DNA from: a virus
Lineage: Duplodnaviria > Caudoviricetes
Virus record (IMG/VR): IMGVR_UViG_3300021373_000801
Location: 1-24,994 of that record
Length of the DNA stretch: 24,994 nt
Strand: one strand, 5' to 3'
Shown here: positions 921 to 23,980 of the stretch, piece after piece
How the letters are laid out: every line of letters starts with the position of its first letter
Position numbering within the stretch: the stretch's first letter is position 1
The notes under the pieces: generated by a model
The model's input: the letters and a program-made list of their open reading frames with translations, nothing else
Databases searched by the model: none
Told to the model about the DNA's origin: nothing
Position numbers and translations under genes: made by a program

Positions 921-2032
921 TAACGTATGTTGTTTATTGTATCAAAAGCAAAGTCAATATCAATCGTATAATTAATCAACTTATCATTAAGAACTGTTTT
1001 ATAAGAGAAACTTCCACCGCTTATATTAATAGGAAGAGTTTTGCTTTCAATCTCAATCCAACAAGCTTCTGAAAGTTGCATCTGTTTGAAAACCTCATTG
1101 TATTCCTCTGGATAAAAGCCAGTGTTTAAAGTTAGCTTTTCCTTTCCATTCTTTGTTAAGATTTTTTCTTGATGTCTGCTTGTATCATAAGCTCCATTGA
1201 CAATGATATTTCTTTTGAATTTCTCATCCTTTGTGCTTAGCGTTTCATTTGATCTCTTAAAAAACCATATATCTTGAAGAGCTCCAAATTTATTTACAAA
1301 AGTAATCTTGAATGGTTGATATTTGCACTCCTGGATATTATCAACTGTTAGCTTTATAACTCCATTATCTGTATCAATATAAATAGTATCAAAATCAAAT
1401 AAAGTAAAATCATCTACAAAATCTTGCAAACATGAACTGTCCTCAAAAGTTCCTCCATCTTGAATCACTCTATTTTCAAACTCATCTGCACCATTAATTC
1501 CATTAGTTACGTATTCAATCTGCTCATCACTTTCTAAGCTACTGCTTATTGCTTTAGTATATACCAGCTCTCCATTAAGCTCATAAGTTACTTGATTTGC
1601 TGTTGAAGTATCAACTGGAATAACTGCTGGTGCATCATCAAGCTTAACAACTATATTGTTGCTCTGTAAAAGTCCAGAATCATTCTGTGGATTGGCTTCA
1701 TCTTCATAATATCCATAACCATCAAAACCAGTTAATTGAGTATAACTTGAGAAGCTACCAGCTACTCCAGAAATGTAATTCTTAGTTCTATAATCAACCC
1801 AAACGTTTAAGGTTTCGTAATCTCCATCAAAAGTCTGTAGCAGATAATCTCTTACAATCTCTCCGATCTCAAAGGTTACATTTTCTGTTATAGCAAATGA
1901 AGTCAATTGAAACAAGTTACTTCTGTCTGTCGTTTGCGTTCCAGTATAAACATACAATTCCATATCCACTTGAGTTAAATTACTCGCTGAGATATTTATG
2001 TAATATGGACTTCTTGCATTAATCTTTGACAT
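920..2032 (-). CDS. Virion structural protein (distal tail/baseplate region)
   Basis: 370 aa, acidic and beta-rich, with a FVNKFGALQDIWF motif; coupled within the tail gene run. Confidence 0.6.
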   Translation of the reverse strand: MSKINARSPYYINISASNLTQVDMELYVYTGTQTTDRSNLFQLTSFAITENVTFEIGEIVRDYLLQTFDGDYETLNVWVDYRTKNYISGVAGSFSSYTQLTGFDGYGYYEDEANPQNDSGLLQSNNIVVKLDDAPAVIPVDTSTANQVTYELNGELVYTKAISSSLESDEQIEYVTNGINGADEFENRVIQDGGTFEDSSCLQDFVDDFTLFDFDTIYIDTDNGVIKLTVDNIQECKYQPFKITFVNKFGALQDIWFFKRSNETLSTKDEKFKRNIIVNGAYDTSRHQEKILTKNGKEKLTLNTGFYPEEYNEVFKQMQLSEACWIEIESKTLPINISGGSFSYKTVLNDKLINYTIDIDFAFDTINNIR

Positions 2033-2563
2033 TTATTTCTCTTTTAAATTTATTTGTATCTGTTTTTCTATTCCTATTGAATAAGCTTTTACAAGATCAT
2101 CTGGAAGTCTTTTGAATGCTCTTTCAAATGGCTTTGTAAAAAACATGCTGGCTTTTATTCCAGTGCTGTAAACGCTTCTTGTTATAATGAAAGAAGTTTG
2201 CTCATAACTCAAAAATCTTCCTTTCTTATCTCTAAACTGTATACCTCTTCTCCTTACCCACTTATCAATGCCTTTAGTCAATCCACCTTTTTTTCCAGTC
2301 TTTCTACCGAACTTGTATGGACTGTTTGGAGCTTTAATGCTTTTATCTTTTCCTTGAACACCCTTATCTACAAAATCTCCATAGTCAGCCATTTTAAAAG
2401 CCATAGACGTTTCTTTTGCACTTTGGGATACCTCATACCCTAAACTATTGTAAAGTTCCTTAGAAGCGTTCTTTTTGCCTTTAGTTAAGTTGCTTCTGCT
2501 TTGCTGAATCACATACTTTGCAAACTTATTCAATTCATCTCTTAAGTATTTCTCTGCTAACAT
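2033..2563 (-). CDS. Neck/tail completion protein (HK97 gp10-like)
   Basis: Basic 176 aa protein with ASKELYNSL...YGDFVDKGV...GIKASMFFTKPF; adjacent to the putative tail terminator. Confidence 0.6.
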   Translation of the reverse strand: MLAEKYLRDELNKFAKYVIQQSRSNLTKGKKNASKELYNSLGYEVSQSAKETSMAFKMADYGDFVDKGVQGKDKSIKAPNSPYKFGRKTGKKGGLTKGIDKWVRRRGIQFRDKKGRFLSYEQTSFIITRSVYSTGIKASMFFTKPFERAFKRLPDDLVKAYSIGIEKQIQINLKEK

Positions 2564-3027
2564 ATATCAATATCATTCCTCACAAAGACATCAAATGTTG
2601 CTGCCCAACCAGCAAGACGATTCTCGAAACGCTCATAAAATGGCTCAAGATTTGCATCTCCATCCAGTTGATATTGATCCGAGTAAAGAACTCCTTTTCT
2701 CAAAACCATTACCAGTTTATTAAGAACTGCAAGTTGAGTATTTAAAATATCTTGTTCATTATTATTTCCTCTGAATATATCACTTGTTTCCTCTTTGCTT
2801 TCATCAACGATATCCATTGCAAGAATACTTACGTTGAACGTTAGCGTTTGCTCTTGTGTGCTTACGTTGTTTATGATTATGTGGCACAAAGGAAAGATAC
2901 TCTGCTTTGATAAATCAATGTCATAAATATCTCCAGTGGTTACTGTATTTACATTGACATCATTTAGAAGCTGGTTTTTGATTGCTTCTGTTAATAGATA
3001 AAATCCTCTTACTCCTGTATTGCTCAT
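2557..3027 (-). CDS. Putative tail terminator protein
   Basis: 156 aa acidic protein with FPLCHI and FENRLAGW motifs; size and position fit the neck/tail module. Confidence 0.55.
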   Translation of the reverse strand: MSNTGVRGFYLLTEAIKNQLLNDVNVNTVTTGDIYDIDLSKQSIFPLCHIIINNVSTQEQTLTFNVSILAMDIVDESKEETSDIFRGNNNEQDILNTQLAVLNKLVMVLRKGVLYSDQYQLDGDANLEPFYERFENRLAGWAATFDVFVRNDIDIC

Positions 3028-3285
3028 TTGAATTTACTTTTTATTTGTCTGGCTTCCAACTCATTCTTTTCTTTAGAGAAAGTCAAAAATGTTAAACATT
3101 CATGCACATTTAGTTTAGTGATATGTTCAAATTTTGTAATATCTCCGTTAGCGATTGCAAAGATGGAGTTGTACCATCCCCACTTTCTTGTGAAATTAGA
3201 TACTCCGCTAAAATCTGCTCGTTCTTCTTGTCCAAAGAGTTGATCATAACTGTAGACAAGTCCCTCCCTAAATTGTAAAAAAAAA
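3024..3285 (-). CDS. -1 frame extension of tail assembly chaperone (gpGT-like)
   Basis: No credible start of its own; entered at a T9 run (3277-3285). Encodes FTRKWGWYNSIFAIANGD...ECLTFLTFSKEK. Its stop overlaps the next ATG (ATGA). Confidence 0.6.
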
Positions 3286-3753
3286 CCACAGCACCAAGCA
3301 CTGCATCTAAGGAAACTCTTTTGCAATCTCAAAACTATCTGGATTGTATTCTTTTATGAAATATCTGTTTCCTCTCTTCATCTCCATTGGTCTAAAGAGA
3401 ACATTTACTGCTCTGTGCAAATTATCATTATCTCCAATAAAAGTATCCAAGTCAATATACTCTCCAAACGTCATATCTTCCAGTGATGGAATAAATCCAT
3501 ACTCTTGTCCATTTAATTTGAAGCTATTAATGAGCTGGTGCTTAGTATCGAACATGTTGTTTATGATTTCAGATATCTCTGTAATATCAGTCGCTCTCAT
3601 TCCTCTCACTGCTTCCTTTGGCACATTGCAGAAGATTTCAACTGCTTTCAACTGGAGCTCTGCTTCTGGAAGCTCACTCAATTTAACAAACTCTTGATAC
3701 TGTCCAAGAGTTATCTCATTTAAGGAAGTTGGTATTGTAATTTTGTAATTCAT
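3110..3753 (-). CDS. Putative tail assembly chaperone, short form (apparent 1-nt deletion at 3309-3310)
   Basis: The 148 aa ORF (ITLGQYQ, MTFGEYIDLD) stops at CCT TAG. Adding one T gives CCT TTA GAT GCA GTG, joining the 3110-3301 ORF (about 214 aa in total). Confidence 0.6.
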
Positions 3754-3800: not shown

Positions 3801-4964
3801 TTAATGGACAGCATATTTACCAAAGTTTGGTCTGCTTAATAATGAGTAAGTAGCGTATCTGACTGCATCAATAATATGGTTGTTCTTATCCACTGGTTTA
3901 TTTGTTAGCTTTCCACTTCTGTCCTCTTGCCATTTATAGTTTCTAAACTCCTGGATTGCATTGTCGCTATCCTTAGTGATATGTATCTTGAATCTCTTTA
4001 ATAAATCAATACCAGCATTTACAGAATCTCTACCTTTTAAGCTTGGTTGGATATTGTGACCCATTCTCCTCAATTCATCAATCAATCGTGGCTCTGCTGA
4101 ATCAAAAAAAATAGTATTCCTACCAACTCCCACTTGTTTAAAATGGTCGCTTAAATCCTTTGTTGTCATCATTGTTCTGTAAAGATGCTCTTGGATATAT
4201 AGATTGTAATCTTTCTTATATACAGATACTAAAGTGCTTGGATCATTTGTATAGCCAGCATCAGCTCCAAAGCTTACAAACTCTGCATCATCTGGAATCT
4301 TATCAGTTTCATAATACTTGAAGATAGTTGCTTTACTGATTCCTCTCTGTCCAAGTCCGTATATTTGCCAGTATTGTTCATCTGTTTCCTTTAAACGCTC
4401 AATCTCTTCAACTATGCTCTTCTCCAGGAATGGATTGTCTAAATAAGTTGTTCGATAAAAGTCAGCATCATCTCTTGGGATAACCTTGTCATATATCCAG
4501 TGGTATTCGTCAGATGGATTGTAATCAATTATGATTTTTTCTTGCGTTCTGAATACTAACTGTTGCCAATCTTCATAGTCAAGCTCATTGGCTTCATTAA
4601 TAAATAAGATATCTCTTTTGCGACCTCTTATCTTTTGTGGTTGATCAACAGAAATAAATTCAATGAGATTTCCATTAAGCTTGTATTCACTATTTGATTT
4701 ATTATGATTCTCCTCTCTATATAGTCCATACTGCTTCAATATAGTCAAGAAATCACGCATTACAGTAGCTCTAACGCTGGGAAAAGTTTTTCTGCAAATA
4801 GTGATAGTTCTTCCTTTTGAAGTTAAGCAATAGTCAAAAACAAGGAAGAGTAAAACATTCCAAGTCTTTCCACTTCTTGTTCCACCCTCGTGTATTGCTA
4901 TCTTGCCAGTGCTGTTCTGCAAATGGCGGTAGACAATGTTAGTCTGTATCTTTGATCTTGTCAA
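3801..4964 (-). CDS. terL: Terminase large subunit (PBSX family)
   Basis: Walker A GGTRSGKT, Walker B LFINEANE, DYNP coupling motif, nuclease motifs GADAGYTNDP and HIIDAVRYA. Confidence 0.95.
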   Translation of the reverse strand: MTRSKIQTNIVYRHLQNSTGKIAIHEGGTRSGKTWNVLLFLVFDYCLTSKGRTITICRKTFPSVRATVMRDFLTILKQYGLYREENHNKSNSEYKLNGNLIEFISVDQPQKIRGRKRDILFINEANELDYEDWQQLVFRTQEKIIIDYNPSDEYHWIYDKVIPRDDADFYRTTYLDNPFLEKSIVEEIERLKETDEQYWQIYGLGQRGISKATIFKYYETDKIPDDAEFVSFGADAGYTNDPSTLVSVYKKDYNLYIQEHLYRTMMTTKDLSDHFKQVGVGRNTIFFDSAEPRLIDELRRMGHNIQPSLKGRDSVNAGIDLLKRFKIHITKDSDNAIQEFRNYKWQEDRSGKLTNKPVDKNNHIIDAVRYATYSLLSRPNFGKYAVH

Positions 4965-5295
4965 TTATCTCAATTTTAAAATCAGTAGGCATTCCATCAG
5001 CTCCAGTTATTTCTTGTCTTTCAACATACCCTCTTTTCTTTCCTTTGCTCTTTAAGTAAAAAATCATCTCTGCTGTCTTTCCTTCTTTGATATTTTCAAA
5101 CAATTTACTCTCAACAAAATCAAGAGCTATTTCCTGGATGTCATTAACTTGTTGAGCAAACTCTGGATCATCTTTTAACCATCCATAAAATGTTGTCCTC
5201 CCCACTCCAACTTTCTTACATGCAGTCGTTACCACACCCAGAGATTTCTCCAGTGCTTCAATGATTGCTTTTTTATGTTGTTCAGTTTTGTTCAT
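4939..5295 (-). CDS. terS: Terminase small subunit (N-terminal HTH)
   Basis: HTH (VTTACKKVGVGRTTFYGW), IFYLKSKGKKRGYVERQEI; overlaps the terL start. Confidence 0.85.
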   Translation of the reverse strand: MNKTEQHKKAIIEALEKSLGVVTTACKKVGVGRTTFYGWLKDDPEFAQQVNDIQEIALDFVESKLFENIKEGKTAEMIFYLKSKGKKRGYVERQEITGADGMPTDFKIEIIDKIKDTD

Positions 5296-5359
5296 AACTT
5301 TTCTATATTATATCCTTATTTTTTGTAACTTTACATTAATGTTTTCATTCTATTCACAT

Positions 5360-5432
5360 GCGGTGGTAGTTTAAAAGTAAAATACTTGGCATCCAGTCAA
5401 GAGATGGCGTTCATATCGACCTCACCGCTCTA
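5360..5432 (+). tRNA. Atypical tRNA-Gly(TCC)-like gene
   Basis: Acceptor stem GCGGTGG/TCACCGC (7 bp) with U73; D stem GTTT/AAAT; anticodon stem CTTGG/TCAAG with loop CATCCAG; T arm GGCG-TTCATAT-CG(A)CC; 3' end CTA in place of CCA. Confidence 0.85.
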
Positions 5433-6095
5433 AGTTTCCCTCCTCTCCTGGAGGGTTATTTTTTCTCCTTTATACATACCAGCTCCAAGCTCATCAATCA
5501 TTTTAAAGTCCAATATATCTGACACTATCTTACAACTTTTATCTATTAATAGAATGTATCTGTTTTGGAATCCCTCAAGAGCTTTAGCTCCTTTAAAGTC
5601 ATACTTGCTATCTCCACGCTTTGCTACTATCTCTCCATTTGCAAGTCTATATATTGTTCCGTTTTTATTTATTTGTGTTAGCTTGAATCCGCTGGCTCTG
5701 TATATTGTTCCATCTCCGCACTGCGTTGCATCCGAGTAGCTTAATATCCATTTAATTTGCGGTGCATTCTTTTTGATCATTCGGATACTGATTGCTATAC
5801 ATCTACTCTCTGAATACTTTGGAAGATAATCATCAAAAGCCATTCTGTTAAGCTCCAGCATCTCATTCCATCTCTTGTTTATATCAGTTTCTCCAGAATC
5901 CACTAAAGGAAGAACGTTTCTTTTATCCATTGGACTTCCATAGCTCATTACTCCATGCAATTGGTTATCCAGGAAGCATCCGAAGTGCAGACTGCTCATA
6001 TTGACAACCTTTCCAGAATAGTGATGTTTCTTTACAAAAGCATTCGCTACTTTAGAGTTTATAACTTTGACGATTATTTCCTTTGCTCTACCCAT
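5430..6095 (-). CDS. mom: Mom-family (GNAT-fold) DNA adenine modification enzyme
   Basis: Family motifs KHHYSG, LELNRM, SESRCI and ILSYSDATQCGDGTIYRASGF resemble phage Mu Mom-like proteins. Confidence 0.85.
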   Translation of the reverse strand: MGRAKEIIVKVINSKVANAFVKKHHYSGKVVNMSSLHFGCFLDNQLHGVMSYGSPMDKRNVLPLVDSGETDINKRWNEMLELNRMAFDDYLPKYSESRCIAISIRMIKKNAPQIKWILSYSDATQCGDGTIYRASGFKLTQINKNGTIYRLANGEIVAKRGDSKYDFKGAKALEGFQNRYILLIDKSCKIVSDILDFKMIDELGAGMYKGEKITLQERRET

Positions 6096-6664
6096 TGGCT
6101 TACTAATAAATATAAGGCGTTTCCATTTGAGTTCTCATTCCCAAATGTTTCAACGTATTTGAACTCTTCTGTTTGTCTTATTTCTTTGATTGCTTCTTTT
6201 ATGAACTCCACTTGTTTATCTGCAAGAGTATAAGTCTGTTGTTGAAATGGCTCTTTCTCTCCATCTGGAAGTGAGAAAGCATCACTGGTTTCAATGTCAT
6301 CCATATTCTGCCAGTTATCCATACCCCAGTCCTCAAGCTCAACAGAGTTCCATTCATTAGCTAATAAATCCCAATCCCACTCTCCAAAGTTTACATTGTC
6401 TTTTACAACAAACTCTCTTTCTTGCATTGGAGTAAGATTATCAGCTTTCATGATCCAGACCTCTTTCAATCCAGCTTCCTTACAAGCTCTTAATCTCATA
6501 TTACCTCCAAGCACAACCATATCACTGTTTACGACTATTGGTCTAAGCTTGAGCATCTCTGGAAACTCTTTGATGCTTTTAACAAGTTTATGATACTTTG
6601 TATCCCTTATGATTCTGGGATTGTCTGGGTTTTTTATTACTTTTCTTATATCAATCAGTTCCAT
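6074..6664 (-). CDS. ParB/Srx N-terminal domain protein
   Basis: NPDNPR...LRPIVVN...VLGGNMRLRAC...KDN...GEWDWDLL; overlaps the mom-like start by 22 nt. Confidence 0.85.
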   Translation of the reverse strand: MELIDIRKVIKNPDNPRIIRDTKYHKLVKSIKEFPEMLKLRPIVVNSDMVVLGGNMRLRACKEAGLKEVWIMKADNLTPMQEREFVVKDNVNFGEWDWDLLANEWNSVELEDWGMDNWQNMDDIETSDAFSLPDGEKEPFQQQTYTLADKQVEFIKEAIKEIRQTEEFKYVETFGNENSNGNALYLLVSQWVEQRK

Positions 6665-6698
6665 ACTTATATATAAATTTTTTCTTATTATTTTAGTA
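6665..6698 (-). promoter_or_regulatory. Putative phage late promoter
   Basis: TACTAAA-N15-TTATATATAAGT immediately before the ATG. Confidence 0.5.
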
Positions 6699-7041
6699 TC
6701 TCCTCAATCTCTTCCAGTTTCTCTGGAGATAAGCTTGATACTTTTTTAATTATATTAATTTTTGAATCATTCAATAAAACCTCGTGAATTAAAGGAAGTT
6801 GCCTGTTATAGAAACTATGATCTTTGTATGTATCATAAGAATGAATCAAAGAAGCGTGAGTTATTTTAAATCCATTTCTTTTGTATTCTCTTACAATCTC
6901 TGTCCAACCCATACCCATAACGTCATGCATGAATACGTTTGCAACGCTTCTCATTTCCACAAGCTCTCGTCTTCTGCTTTGCTCAAATATATCAACTCCT
7001 GTTATTTCTTTTATCTGTTCTCCTATCTTCTGTAATTTCAT
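6688..7041 (-). CDS. HTH protein resembling the DnaA C-terminal domain
   Basis: SRRRELVEMR...WTEI...THASLIHS resembles the DnaA domain IV pattern (R...AR...dHtTVlH). Confidence 0.5.
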   Translation of the reverse strand: MKLQKIGEQIKEITGVDIFEQSRRRELVEMRSVANVFMHDVMGMGWTEIVREYKRNGFKITHASLIHSYDTYKDHSFYNRQLPLIHEVLLNDSKINIIKKVSSLSPEKLEEIEEILK

Positions 7042-7052
7042 TTTATTTATTT

Positions 7053-7706
7053 TTAAAATAATTCTATTTGATTAATGTTTTGTTTTTTGATTATACCCAT
7101 TGCTGTGTCAAGAATTGTTTTACCAGCTTCATACTCTACCAAATTTCTTGCAATCTTTACTGTGCTTTGCTTTCCTTTATATTGTCTAAAATTATAATCA
7201 TGGAACTCACAAAGCTTGTTTAATTCGTCCGTACTATTACCAAAAACTGGTGGCTTTCTTTTGCTTAAAGTGTTTGGAAGATTAAAGTTTGTCCAATAAA
7301 GATGTCTCCCTCTTTTATGTGCTGGGATAAGCGGATCATAATAAGGAACAACATTCTCAACAACATACTTTCCTTTAAATCTTGGATTCTCTCCTTTTGA
7401 AACTAACTCCAGTAATATGATTTGTTGGTAAAGTGACATGTCTGGATACTGTGCTTTATATTTTGAGTTATATGCTCTGGCTCTGGAATGAGATGGACAA
7501 GGTGGAGAGCTCCAGATGAAATCAAAATCTTGATAATTGTCAAGAAGATATTGATGTGCATCCGCAACGATAACCTTATCTTTTGGAAATCTCTCTTGAT
7601 ATAATCTTGCAAGTTCTTCATCCCACTCCACTGCTGTTATTTCATGCTCATCTCCCCACTTATAGCGATTACCTCCAAGACAAGCGTATAAGTTTAAAAT
7701 TCTCAT
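7053..7706 (-). CDS. DNA (cytosine-5) methyltransferase
   Basis: Motif I-like LYACLGG, catalytic SPPC, ENV motif, RHLYW. Confidence 0.8.
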   Translation of the reverse strand: MRILNLYACLGGNRYKWGDEHEITAVEWDEELARLYQERFPKDKVIVADAHQYLLDNYQDFDFIWSSPPCPSHSRARAYNSKYKAQYPDMSLYQQIILLELVSKGENPRFKGKYVVENVVPYYDPLIPAHKRGRHLYWTNFNLPNTLSKRKPPVFGNSTDELNKLCEFHDYNFRQYKGKQSTVKIARNLVEYEAGKTILDTAMGIIKKQNINQIELF

Positions 7707-15719: not shown

Positions 15720-15730
15720 CAATTTATCAC

Positions 15731-15756
15731 AAAAAAAACCACCTATTAAGGTGGCT
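15731..15756 (-). terminator. Intrinsic terminator
   Basis: GCCACCT-TAAT-AGGTGGT followed by a T-run. Confidence 0.8.
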
Positions 15757-15865
15757 CTTTCCGAGTTGGTTAACTCTTTGATAACAAAAAACAAAGATTA
15801 TTTCTTAATCAAATATACTTAATAAATAAAAAAAAGAGATTAAAACGCTAAAGAGTTATCAACAA

Positions 15866-23041: not shown

Positions 23042-23980
23042 TTAAGATGCAAGTGTATAAAGAGCGATGTCTCCACCGATACCATACTGAACACCAGCGG
23101 TTGCTCTCATTACTACTCTTACGTTTTGACTTCCATCAACGTCACTCATGTCAATAACCTTAACTTCTTGAGAATCTGACAACAAGCCAGTACCAAAGAA
23201 TAAGTTTGACTTCTGTGCAGCAACCATGTGGTCTGCTGGCATTCCAGGAGCTCTAAAGATTTTGATTCCATCAAAAAGCAAGTTGCTTAATGCTTGGTTG
23301 TTTCCTTTATTGTCATAACCATTAGCACCTACCCCACCAGATTGGAATCCTCCTAAAGCACGTAAGTAAAGTTGATAAACATTGTTAGGAACATAGATGT
23401 GTAAATCTTCTTGGTATAAAACGCTGTTTGGAATAGCATCTACCAATTTTCCGATTTCTGTTGTGATATTTGCTGCTGTAAAAGCAGTTTCAGAAGTTAC
23501 TGCATCATTAACATCTCCATCTGCTGCCATAAGAACAGTGAATCCATCAAACTCTCCAGCGTTAGCATTTACTCCACCCCAGATGTTTTGCTCTGTTTTT
23601 TGAGCTACTTTCTCTGCAACGTGAGAGATTAAGAAGTCAGAAAATGATGGAGGAAGTTGGTCGAATGTAGAATAACCCATCTCGATTGCTTCCCAGTCAG
23701 AACGGAAATCTTTCTTACACAATTGTAAGTTTACTTGAAACTCCTCTGGTTGTAAGATTCTTTCTGTTAATGTAATTGTAGAAGTAGGATCAAAATCACA
23801 AGTAGCATCTTTTAAGATTGCATCAGTTGAAACTTTTTTGATTACTTCTTTAAACTTAACGTTTGGTTTGATTTCTACTCCACCATTGCTAAGTGTTTCT
23901 CCGCTTAGTAAAGCTGCACTGATGTATTTACCAGCAAACTCACCAGCGTAAGTTGTTGTAATTGATGTTGTTGTTGCCAT
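23042..23980 (-). CDS. Major capsid protein
   Basis: 312 aa; YAGEFAGKYI, NLQLCK.DF, EQNIWGG...FDG, NLFFGTGLLSD; lies after the scaffold and before a terminator. Confidence 0.85.
   Translation of the reverse strand: MATTTSITTTYAGEFAGKYISAALLSGETLSNGGVEIKPNVKFKEVIKKVSTDAILKDATCDFDPTSTITLTERILQPEEFQVNLQLCKKDFRSDWEAIEMGYSTFDQLPPSFSDFLISHVAEKVAQKTEQNIWGGVNANAGEFDGFTVLMAADGDVNDAVTSETAFTAANITTEIGKLVDAIPNSVLYQEDLHIYVPNNVYQLYLRALGGFQSGGVGANGYDNKGNNQALSNLLFDGIKIFRAPGMPADHMVAAQKSNLFFGTGLLSDSQEVKVIDMSDVDGSQNVRVVMRATAGVQYGIGGDIALYTLAS

Follow-up and report, generated by a model that had tools for sequence, protein, structure and literature searches.

The window (the whole 24,994-nt stretch of viral DNA analyzed here) has its long genes all on the minus strand, among them a gene at 5430–6095 encoding a 221-aa GNAT of the Mom family, a predicted adenine carbamoylmethylase (PF25680, E 5e-43; phrog_1384; PDB 8bv8, E 2e-17). 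The PF25680 match scores 147 bits against a curated cut-off of 27.1. The gene for the terminase small subunit (4939–5295, minus strand) lies downstream of mom, and a gene for a ParB-like protein (6074–6664, minus strand) overlaps the mom start. Between the terminase small subunit gene and mom, on the plus strand, we identified a tRNA-Gly-like RNA gene of 70 nt (5360–5429), the 3' end of which abuts or overlaps the mom stop codon on the opposite strand in a head-on arrangement. ARAGORN and a covariance model found no second tRNA-like gene in the window. Upstream of mom and near the terminase gene, ParB-like and C5 cytosine methylase-like genes (6074–7706) occupy a possible slot for DNA-modification cassettes that is filled differently elsewhere. 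A strong hairpin with a U tract at 15729–15760 (minus strand), with weak chance matches in Rfam, looks like an ordinary terminator. Among cultured phages, the major-capsid-like protein (23042–23980) matches only the Nonlabens phages P12024S/L (33%) and therefore suggests a phage of marine Flavobacteriaceae, with the host predicted from this similarity.

Mu Mom moves glycine from Gly-tRNA-Gly to the N6 of adenine in double-stranded DNA, accepting all three E. coli tRNA-Gly isoacceptors and rejecting Gly-tRNA-Ala (Silva et al. 2026, PMC13219725). The window Mom belongs to the same family as Mu Mom (PDB 8bv8), with 34% identity over 139 residues, and keeps six active-site residues, H25, Y26, R84, S97, D122, and Y132 being equivalent to Mu H58, Y59, R111, S124, D149, and Y159. 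The two differ in that Mu relies on scavenged host tRNA, with no RNA of this kind close to its mom gene, and in that Mu R151, W48, and W181 are replaced in the window Mom by T124, K15, and I156, at positions that vary across the family.

The RNA gene comprises an acceptor stem of 7 bp (5360–5366/5422–5428) including G1-C72, C2-G71, and G3-C70, a D stem of 4 bp (5369–5372/5380–5383; one G-U and three U-A), an anticodon stem of 5 bp (5385–5389/5397–5401), a T stem of 4 bp (GG-CG/CG-A-CC), and U73 at 5429. Its anticodon loop reads C32 A33 U34 C35 C36 A37 G38 (anticodon UCC), and its T loop, UUCAUAU, has U58. The T stem is interrupted by a bulged A at 5419 in the 50-64/51-63 region read by EF-Tu, which is a hallmark of the family and is flanked by covarying pairs. 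An earlier note on this DNA had reported intact glycine identity bases, four paired stems, the replacement of U33 by A and of A58 by T, and a 4-bp T stem with a bulged A, all of which were recovered on parsing the sequence. Its statement that the D loop lacks G18G19 is correct for G18 only; G19 is kept at 5377 and covaries with C56. The note named no partner for the RNA and overlooked its Mom neighbor, the pairable C32-G38, and the missing encoded CCA. The position of CCA is occupied by CTA (5430–5432), which on the other strand reads TAG, the stop codon of mom, and CCA is encoded in only 1 of the 80 unique elements of the set described below.

As the earlier note had foreseen, standard scanners miss the element, with ARAGORN calling 0 genes in the whole 24,994-nt window and Rfam giving no match at 5360–5429. 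Our parser scored it at 22.5, compared with a best score of 17.5 in 40 block-shuffled loci, and a covariance model gave it 82 bits, a circular result in that the model alignment includes the element. Folded alone, the element is only modestly stable (z -1.5 and -2.1) and its D stem is absent from the minimum-energy fold, so the case for it rests on comparison. An assembly or sequencing error as the source of the T-stem bulge, which the note had proposed checking in reads, is ruled out by a contig from an independent run that spans 5358–5433 with 0 differences from the window, showing no canonical T stem at contig level, and by the identical T arm of the closest relatives. Contigs of the RNA runs X15 and X16 do not reach the element and are uninformative on the expression of a 70-nt RNA.

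Covariation was assessed in an alignment of 45 distinct sequences. With elements delimited by a parser that itself required paired stems and a CC, and with cells counting related sequences rather than independent events, 99.8% of stem cells are paired, and 17 of the 20 pairs show double changes (271 in all). Changes in the stems are thus compensated rather than scattered as decay would have them in the earlier note. The covariation value is 0.85, compared with 0.27 after shuffling and at most 0.2 with partners slid, and RNAalifold recovers the same cloverleaf unprompted. The tertiary contact 19-56 is paired in 45/45 sequences (41 G-C, 4 A-U), and C32-G38 is pairable in 45/45. Pair counts of 59–68% for the D and anticodon stems in a gap-free alignment (A2) proved to be artefacts of mixing two loop registers, and the T stem of that alignment was fixed by the search pattern.

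A set of 80 unique elements, drawn from loci L001–L080 and L096–L214, separates what stays from what drifts. The bulged T-stem A, the conservation of which the earlier note had asked about, is invariant (80/80), and the two pairs outside it change together (GG/CC in 69, AA/UU in 6, GA/UC in 4, and AG/CU in 1 of the 80). Identity bases are likewise fixed, with U73 in 80/80 and GCG in 79/80. The anticodon loop has 8 nt in 46/80 and the 7-nt form with U33 in only 8/80, so the loss of U33 highlighted in the note is not reversed across the family; position 34 is U, A, or C, the D-loop GG is kept in 52/80, and a UGC T loop is found in 11/80. ARAGORN called 14 of 60 related loci, 8 as tRNA-Gly and 6 with undetermined identity. 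On the strength of this comparison, we conclude that the tRNA-Gly-like element is a real, conserved RNA gene under selection.

The window copy has the features of a GlyRS substrate, namely G1-C72, C2-G71, G3-C70, C35, C36, U73, the cloverleaf, and the 19-56 contact, and is missing the elongator features U33, an open 7-nt loop, a continuous 5-bp T stem, and A58. G3-C70 is a determinant for GlyRS. The set G1-C72, C2-G71, C35, C36, and U73 has been described as the bacterial GlyRS identity set (PMC10464925). Some relatives have no D arm or no anticodon CC (L319, L330, L332, and L426). These four loci keep the acceptor stem, U73-CCA, and the bulged T arm, and the CC of the anticodon loop is absent from them. 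One GlyRS barely charges a D-armless tRNA and requires C35/C36 (PMC10464925), and the D-armless and CC-less relatives are therefore the main difficulty for reading the RNA as a glycyl donor.

We found the element linked to mom when starting from either partner. A scan of viral contigs with the window Mom gave 369 relatives, and in the best 80 of these 369 (65–99% identity) the element was present at 80/80 loci, sense or antisense and mostly no further than about 30 nt from the mom stop. L012, L027, and L035 are exceptions, with a distance of about 675 nt between the element and mom, and in L012 the intervening gene is a second Mom. The L012 locus (1962–3404) thus has two different Mom paralogues in tandem, with one RNA copy and one terminator for both; the spacing at L027 and L035 is the same (Pfam was run for L012 only). 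At seven loci (L021, L034, L037, L044, L049, L058, and L076), positions 74–76 are CAA or CTC instead of CTA, such that translation of mom continues into the antisense RNA and adds a variable tail to the protein; C-terminal tails of Mom proteins in databases can consequently be RNA-derived.

Searches from the RNA side used two patterns written from Mom-linked copies, which favors close kin, and scored Mom within 1.5 kb by an HMM of the Mom core only. The first pattern, for the 4-bp T-stem form, returned 119 viral loci with a Mom core in 77/80 of those with wide flanks, at least two of the three misses ending at a contig edge. The second, describing a 5-bp form that shares the bulge and encodes CCA, was modeled on phage Y8A and covered 120 of an estimated 710 viral stretches, with Mom within 1.5 kb in 76/80 wide loci. 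Loci with flanks of only 300 nt had Mom in 28/39 and 18/40 cases, flanks that are too short to inform. Applied to one genome each of 185,579 prokaryotic species, the second pattern occurred 87 times across many phyla, with Mom in 67/87 and, for copies with at least 900 nt on both flanks, in 59/69. The ten other well-flanked genome copies of these 69, and one viral exception, have no Mom by Pfam within 1.5 kb, and most of them look chromosomal. Copies without Mom within 1.5 kb include L381, L385, L391, L397, L402, L407, and L437, from Terriglobia and Bacillota MAGs and in surroundings that look chromosomal; L391 sits beside RtcB, and the MAG of L437 has Mom-linked copies elsewhere (L440 and L441).

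The partners of the RNA include Moms only 25–35% identical to the window Mom, four of them confirmed by PF25680. Among 160 wide loci of the second pattern, the RNA lies at the 3' end of the mom frame in 67, at the 5' end in 63, after the stop in 9, and antisense in 2, with no Mom in 19. An RNA found 5', 3', inside, or antisense to mom therefore follows the enzyme and not a position. The cultured Psychrobacter phage vB_PmaS_Y8A (OQ059336, L081; Mom 46%) has tandem, unannotated, D-armless copies with CCA (2162–2229 and 2234–2302) directly after mom. The 76-nt class also encodes CCA, but CCA was part of its search pattern.

The link between the RNA and Mom is clade-specific. By covariance model, the element was found in 0/44 Mu-like Mom loci, and it was found in 0/79 Mom loci retrieved with P12002L as query and was absent from 14/15 cultured phages; three element sequences searched by BLAST against cultured phages gave no full-length family member. 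Since these Moms lack the element, Mom does not always need the RNA. A loose detector matched one of the 44 Mu-like loci (L361), which we rejected as chance, the match being far from canonical, with no CCA-like end and no covariance-model support. Phylum-wide samples of 1,087 genomes held 17 Mom loci, of which 2/14 were positive once the three centre genomes were left out, as scored by a detector known to overlook some genuine copies. A Mom tree (FastTree) places the window Mom among 46 representatives that form a group with strong support; 45 are labeled positive and the other is a detector miss, many members having been found through the RNA. That tree has long branches, a sample biased to RNA-linked loci, and at least three “absent” labels that are detector misses (L216, L424, and L426), which makes it unsuited to counting gains and losses. 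RNA-linked and RNA-less Moms are not cleanly told apart by any residue. At R125, arginine occurs in 76% of RNA-linked versus 19% of RNA-less Moms, and R151, essential in Mu, is arginine in only 35% of RNA-less Moms.

An antisense copy faces against the phage genes and therefore needs its own signals. Upstream of the window copy lies a predicted Bacteroidota -7 promoter box, TAACTTTA (5326–5333, plus strand), one mismatch from the published consensus TAnnTTTG (PMC9723704), and a hairpin with a U tract resembling an intrinsic terminator for the RNA gene follows at 5438–5464 (plus strand), overlapping the final mom codons of the opposite strand. The strict consensus occurs at most 40 nt upstream of 24/51 antisense copies, compared with 5/26 sense copies and 2.6% of background tiles. 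A looser motif (47/51 antisense versus 3/26 sense copies) was set aside in favor of the strict published consensus because it had been chosen after seeing the data. A terminator follows 63/69 antisense copies compared with 2/29 sense copies, 0/29 equivalent mom 3' ends in the sense-copy loci, and 0/208 background tiles; in another Mom clade (L098 and L099), other hairpin sequences serve as terminator. The promoter-like box and terminator of antisense copies make it likely that the RNA is a free transcript from an independent transcription unit, and inversion accompanied by the gain of both signals argues for an RNA acting in trans.

We predict that the RNA is a dedicated glycyl donor for the DNA adenine hypermodification carried out by Mom, evading EF-Tu, rather than a decoding tRNA, a role that we consider probable from the comparative data. 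Compensatory selection acts on the cloverleaf and its 19-56 elbow, and the element is linked to mom whichever partner the search starts from. Host RNA polymerase would transcribe a short separate unit (promoter-like box, RNA, and terminator) convergent on mom, and host enzymes would trim the RNA and add CCA. Host GlyRS would then charge it via G1-C72, C2-G71, G3-C70, C35, C36, and U73. The affinity of EF-Tu is set by pairs 49-65, 50-64, and 51-63, and the energy tables published for this deal with paired T stems and not with bulged ones (PMC3239215); EF-Tu is also reported to sequester donors from the non-ribosomal transferase FmhB (PMC7826273). The bulged A at the pairs read by EF-Tu, together with A33, C32-G38, and U58, would keep the RNA off EF-Tu and the ribosome, so that the charged RNA would not be sequestered; from these features, we infer weak EF-Tu binding and failed decoding of GGA. 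By homology to Mu Mom, the enzyme would finally move the glycyl group to the N6 of adenine in double-stranded DNA, so that shortly before packaging the DNA would contain a base, 6-NcmdA, that blocks restriction. Rather than being chemically essential, the RNA probably supplements or substitutes for the tRNA-Gly of the host.

The idea of a phage tRNA that does not decode has to be weighed against other explanations. Several facts count against the donor role in addition to the D-armless and CC-less relatives: Mu Mom works with all three host tRNA-Gly isoacceptors, other Mom clades lack the element, the promoter box of the window copy has one mismatch, the residue equivalent to Mu R151 is T here, and ten of the 69 well-flanked genome copies have no Mom within 1.5 kb. 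An unlikely alternative is that the RNA regulates Mom, as a tRNA-shaped ligand or decoy holding the enzyme in check or as a processing or antisense signal limiting mom mRNA. It may be that D-armless and CC-less forms cannot be charged, the window RNA is predicted to be transcribed convergently into the mom 3' end, and 127/160 loci of the second pattern lie in the stop-to-stop mom frame, where excision of the RNA would cut the mRNA. However, inversion would be expected to abolish any signal that works through the mRNA, and the same fold is nevertheless seen in 51 antisense and 26 sense unique copies; in the window, moreover, the mom frame is overlapped in antisense by only about 35 nt. The bases under strict conservation make up the identity set of GlyRS, and a decoy that is never charged would have no need of the complete set.

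It is far less probable that the element is a working tRNA-Gly(UCC) that supplements GGA decoding or replaces a host tRNA cut by an anticodon nuclease. GGA is indeed common in this DNA, as the earlier note stated (192/309 glycine codons in 21 long ORFs of the window), the anticodon UCC is intact in the window copy, and ARAGORN assigns 8/60 related loci to tRNA-Gly, but the window copy has A33, C32-G38, U58, and a bulged 4-bp T stem, and its relatives have 8-nt loops in 46/80 cases and a free position 34. Codon supply also does not explain a tie to Mom across phyla, and the element is the sole tRNA-like gene in the window. A decayed tRNA, a relic of an integration site, or a by-product of the Mom coding sequence is scarcely credible. 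The failure of scanners and the absent CCA would fit such an origin, as would the placement of related elements in integrative islands (PMC3146451), yet the relic explanation is largely refuted by stems that are 99.8% paired through 271 double changes, and the tertiary covariation of 19-56, the invariant bulge, and the non-coding position of the element in the window point the same way. The bulged motif is also rare, with 87 occurrences in one genome each of 185,579 species, and sits mostly beside Mom, and therefore is not an ordinary end of a host tRNA. Overall, the non-proteinogenic reading proposed in the earlier note is supported by the sequence comparisons, with the staphylococcal case that it invoked kept as an analogy only, because the comparative evidence points to the adjacent Mom as partner.

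The staphylococcal tRNA-Gly species NP1–NP3 are chromosomal donors for FmhB, FemA, and FemB that serve peptidoglycan synthesis, and weaken EF-Tu binding by A49-U65, U50-A64, and A51-U63 together with a UGC or UGU T loop (PMC7826273). Like them, the window RNA keeps glycine identity, has changed T and D arms and an extended anticodon stem, and is predicted here to have a transferase with a GNAT fold as its customer. Unlike them, it has G-C, G-C, and a bulge in the T stem and a UUC T loop, is borne by a mobile element, in this case a marine phage, and is predicted to serve DNA modification. By analogy, the window RNA would work like the staphylococcal tRNAs but is not a member of their group. 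A probable relative comes from Dehalococcoides. The donor of Mom was not known at the time of the 2011 paper on that element. A 76-bp tRNA-Gly-like “pseudo-tRNA”, of which 16 copies were published, was described inside a mom homologue in Dehalococcoides ssrA islands, with no function proposed in the account (McMurdie et al. 2011, PMC3146451). It resembles the window RNA in its tRNA-Gly-like fold, its free first anticodon base (“DCC”), and its tie to a mom homologue. Dehalococcoidia MAG loci in our set have 76-nt bulged copies at the mom 5' end, fitting the length and place described for the pseudo-tRNA, and from this comparison of descriptions it is very likely that the two belong to the same family. 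The Dehalococcoides form is sense and inside the gene, in contrast to the 70-nt, 4-bp-stem, antisense form of the window, for which a separate promoter and terminator are predicted.

Searches of the literature for Mom together with tRNA, largely outside subscription journals, gave no report linking such an RNA to Mom as donor, including in passages of PMC7824862, and a tRNA partner encoded by the phage does not come up in the main text of Silva et al. 2026 (PMC13219725). According to the staphylococcal account, S. aureus and S. epidermidis were until then the only species with detected non-proteogenic tRNAs (PMC7826273). If the donor role is correct, phage-borne tRNAs for DNA modification would be a second, independently built non-ribosomal case that uses a different structural trick, would account for the pseudo-tRNA of 2011, and would show how Mom avoids competition with EF-Tu. 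More tentatively, and at somewhat below even odds in our view, the bulged-A glycyl carriers may form a family of RNA cofactors shaped by co-evolution with several Mom clades, the bulge being both an EF-Tu antideterminant and a feature recognized by Mom, in a two-part anti-restriction module that is independent of host tRNA and has spread over many phyla unseen by scanners. The antisense arrangement in the window separates the RNA from the reading frame and so makes a clean deletion possible, and Y8A, with two copies after mom, is a cultured, ready experimental system. If the donor role holds, many Mom homologues are predicted to work best with their own RNA, and the family would provide a natural tRNA scaffold that can be charged and is excluded from the ribosome.
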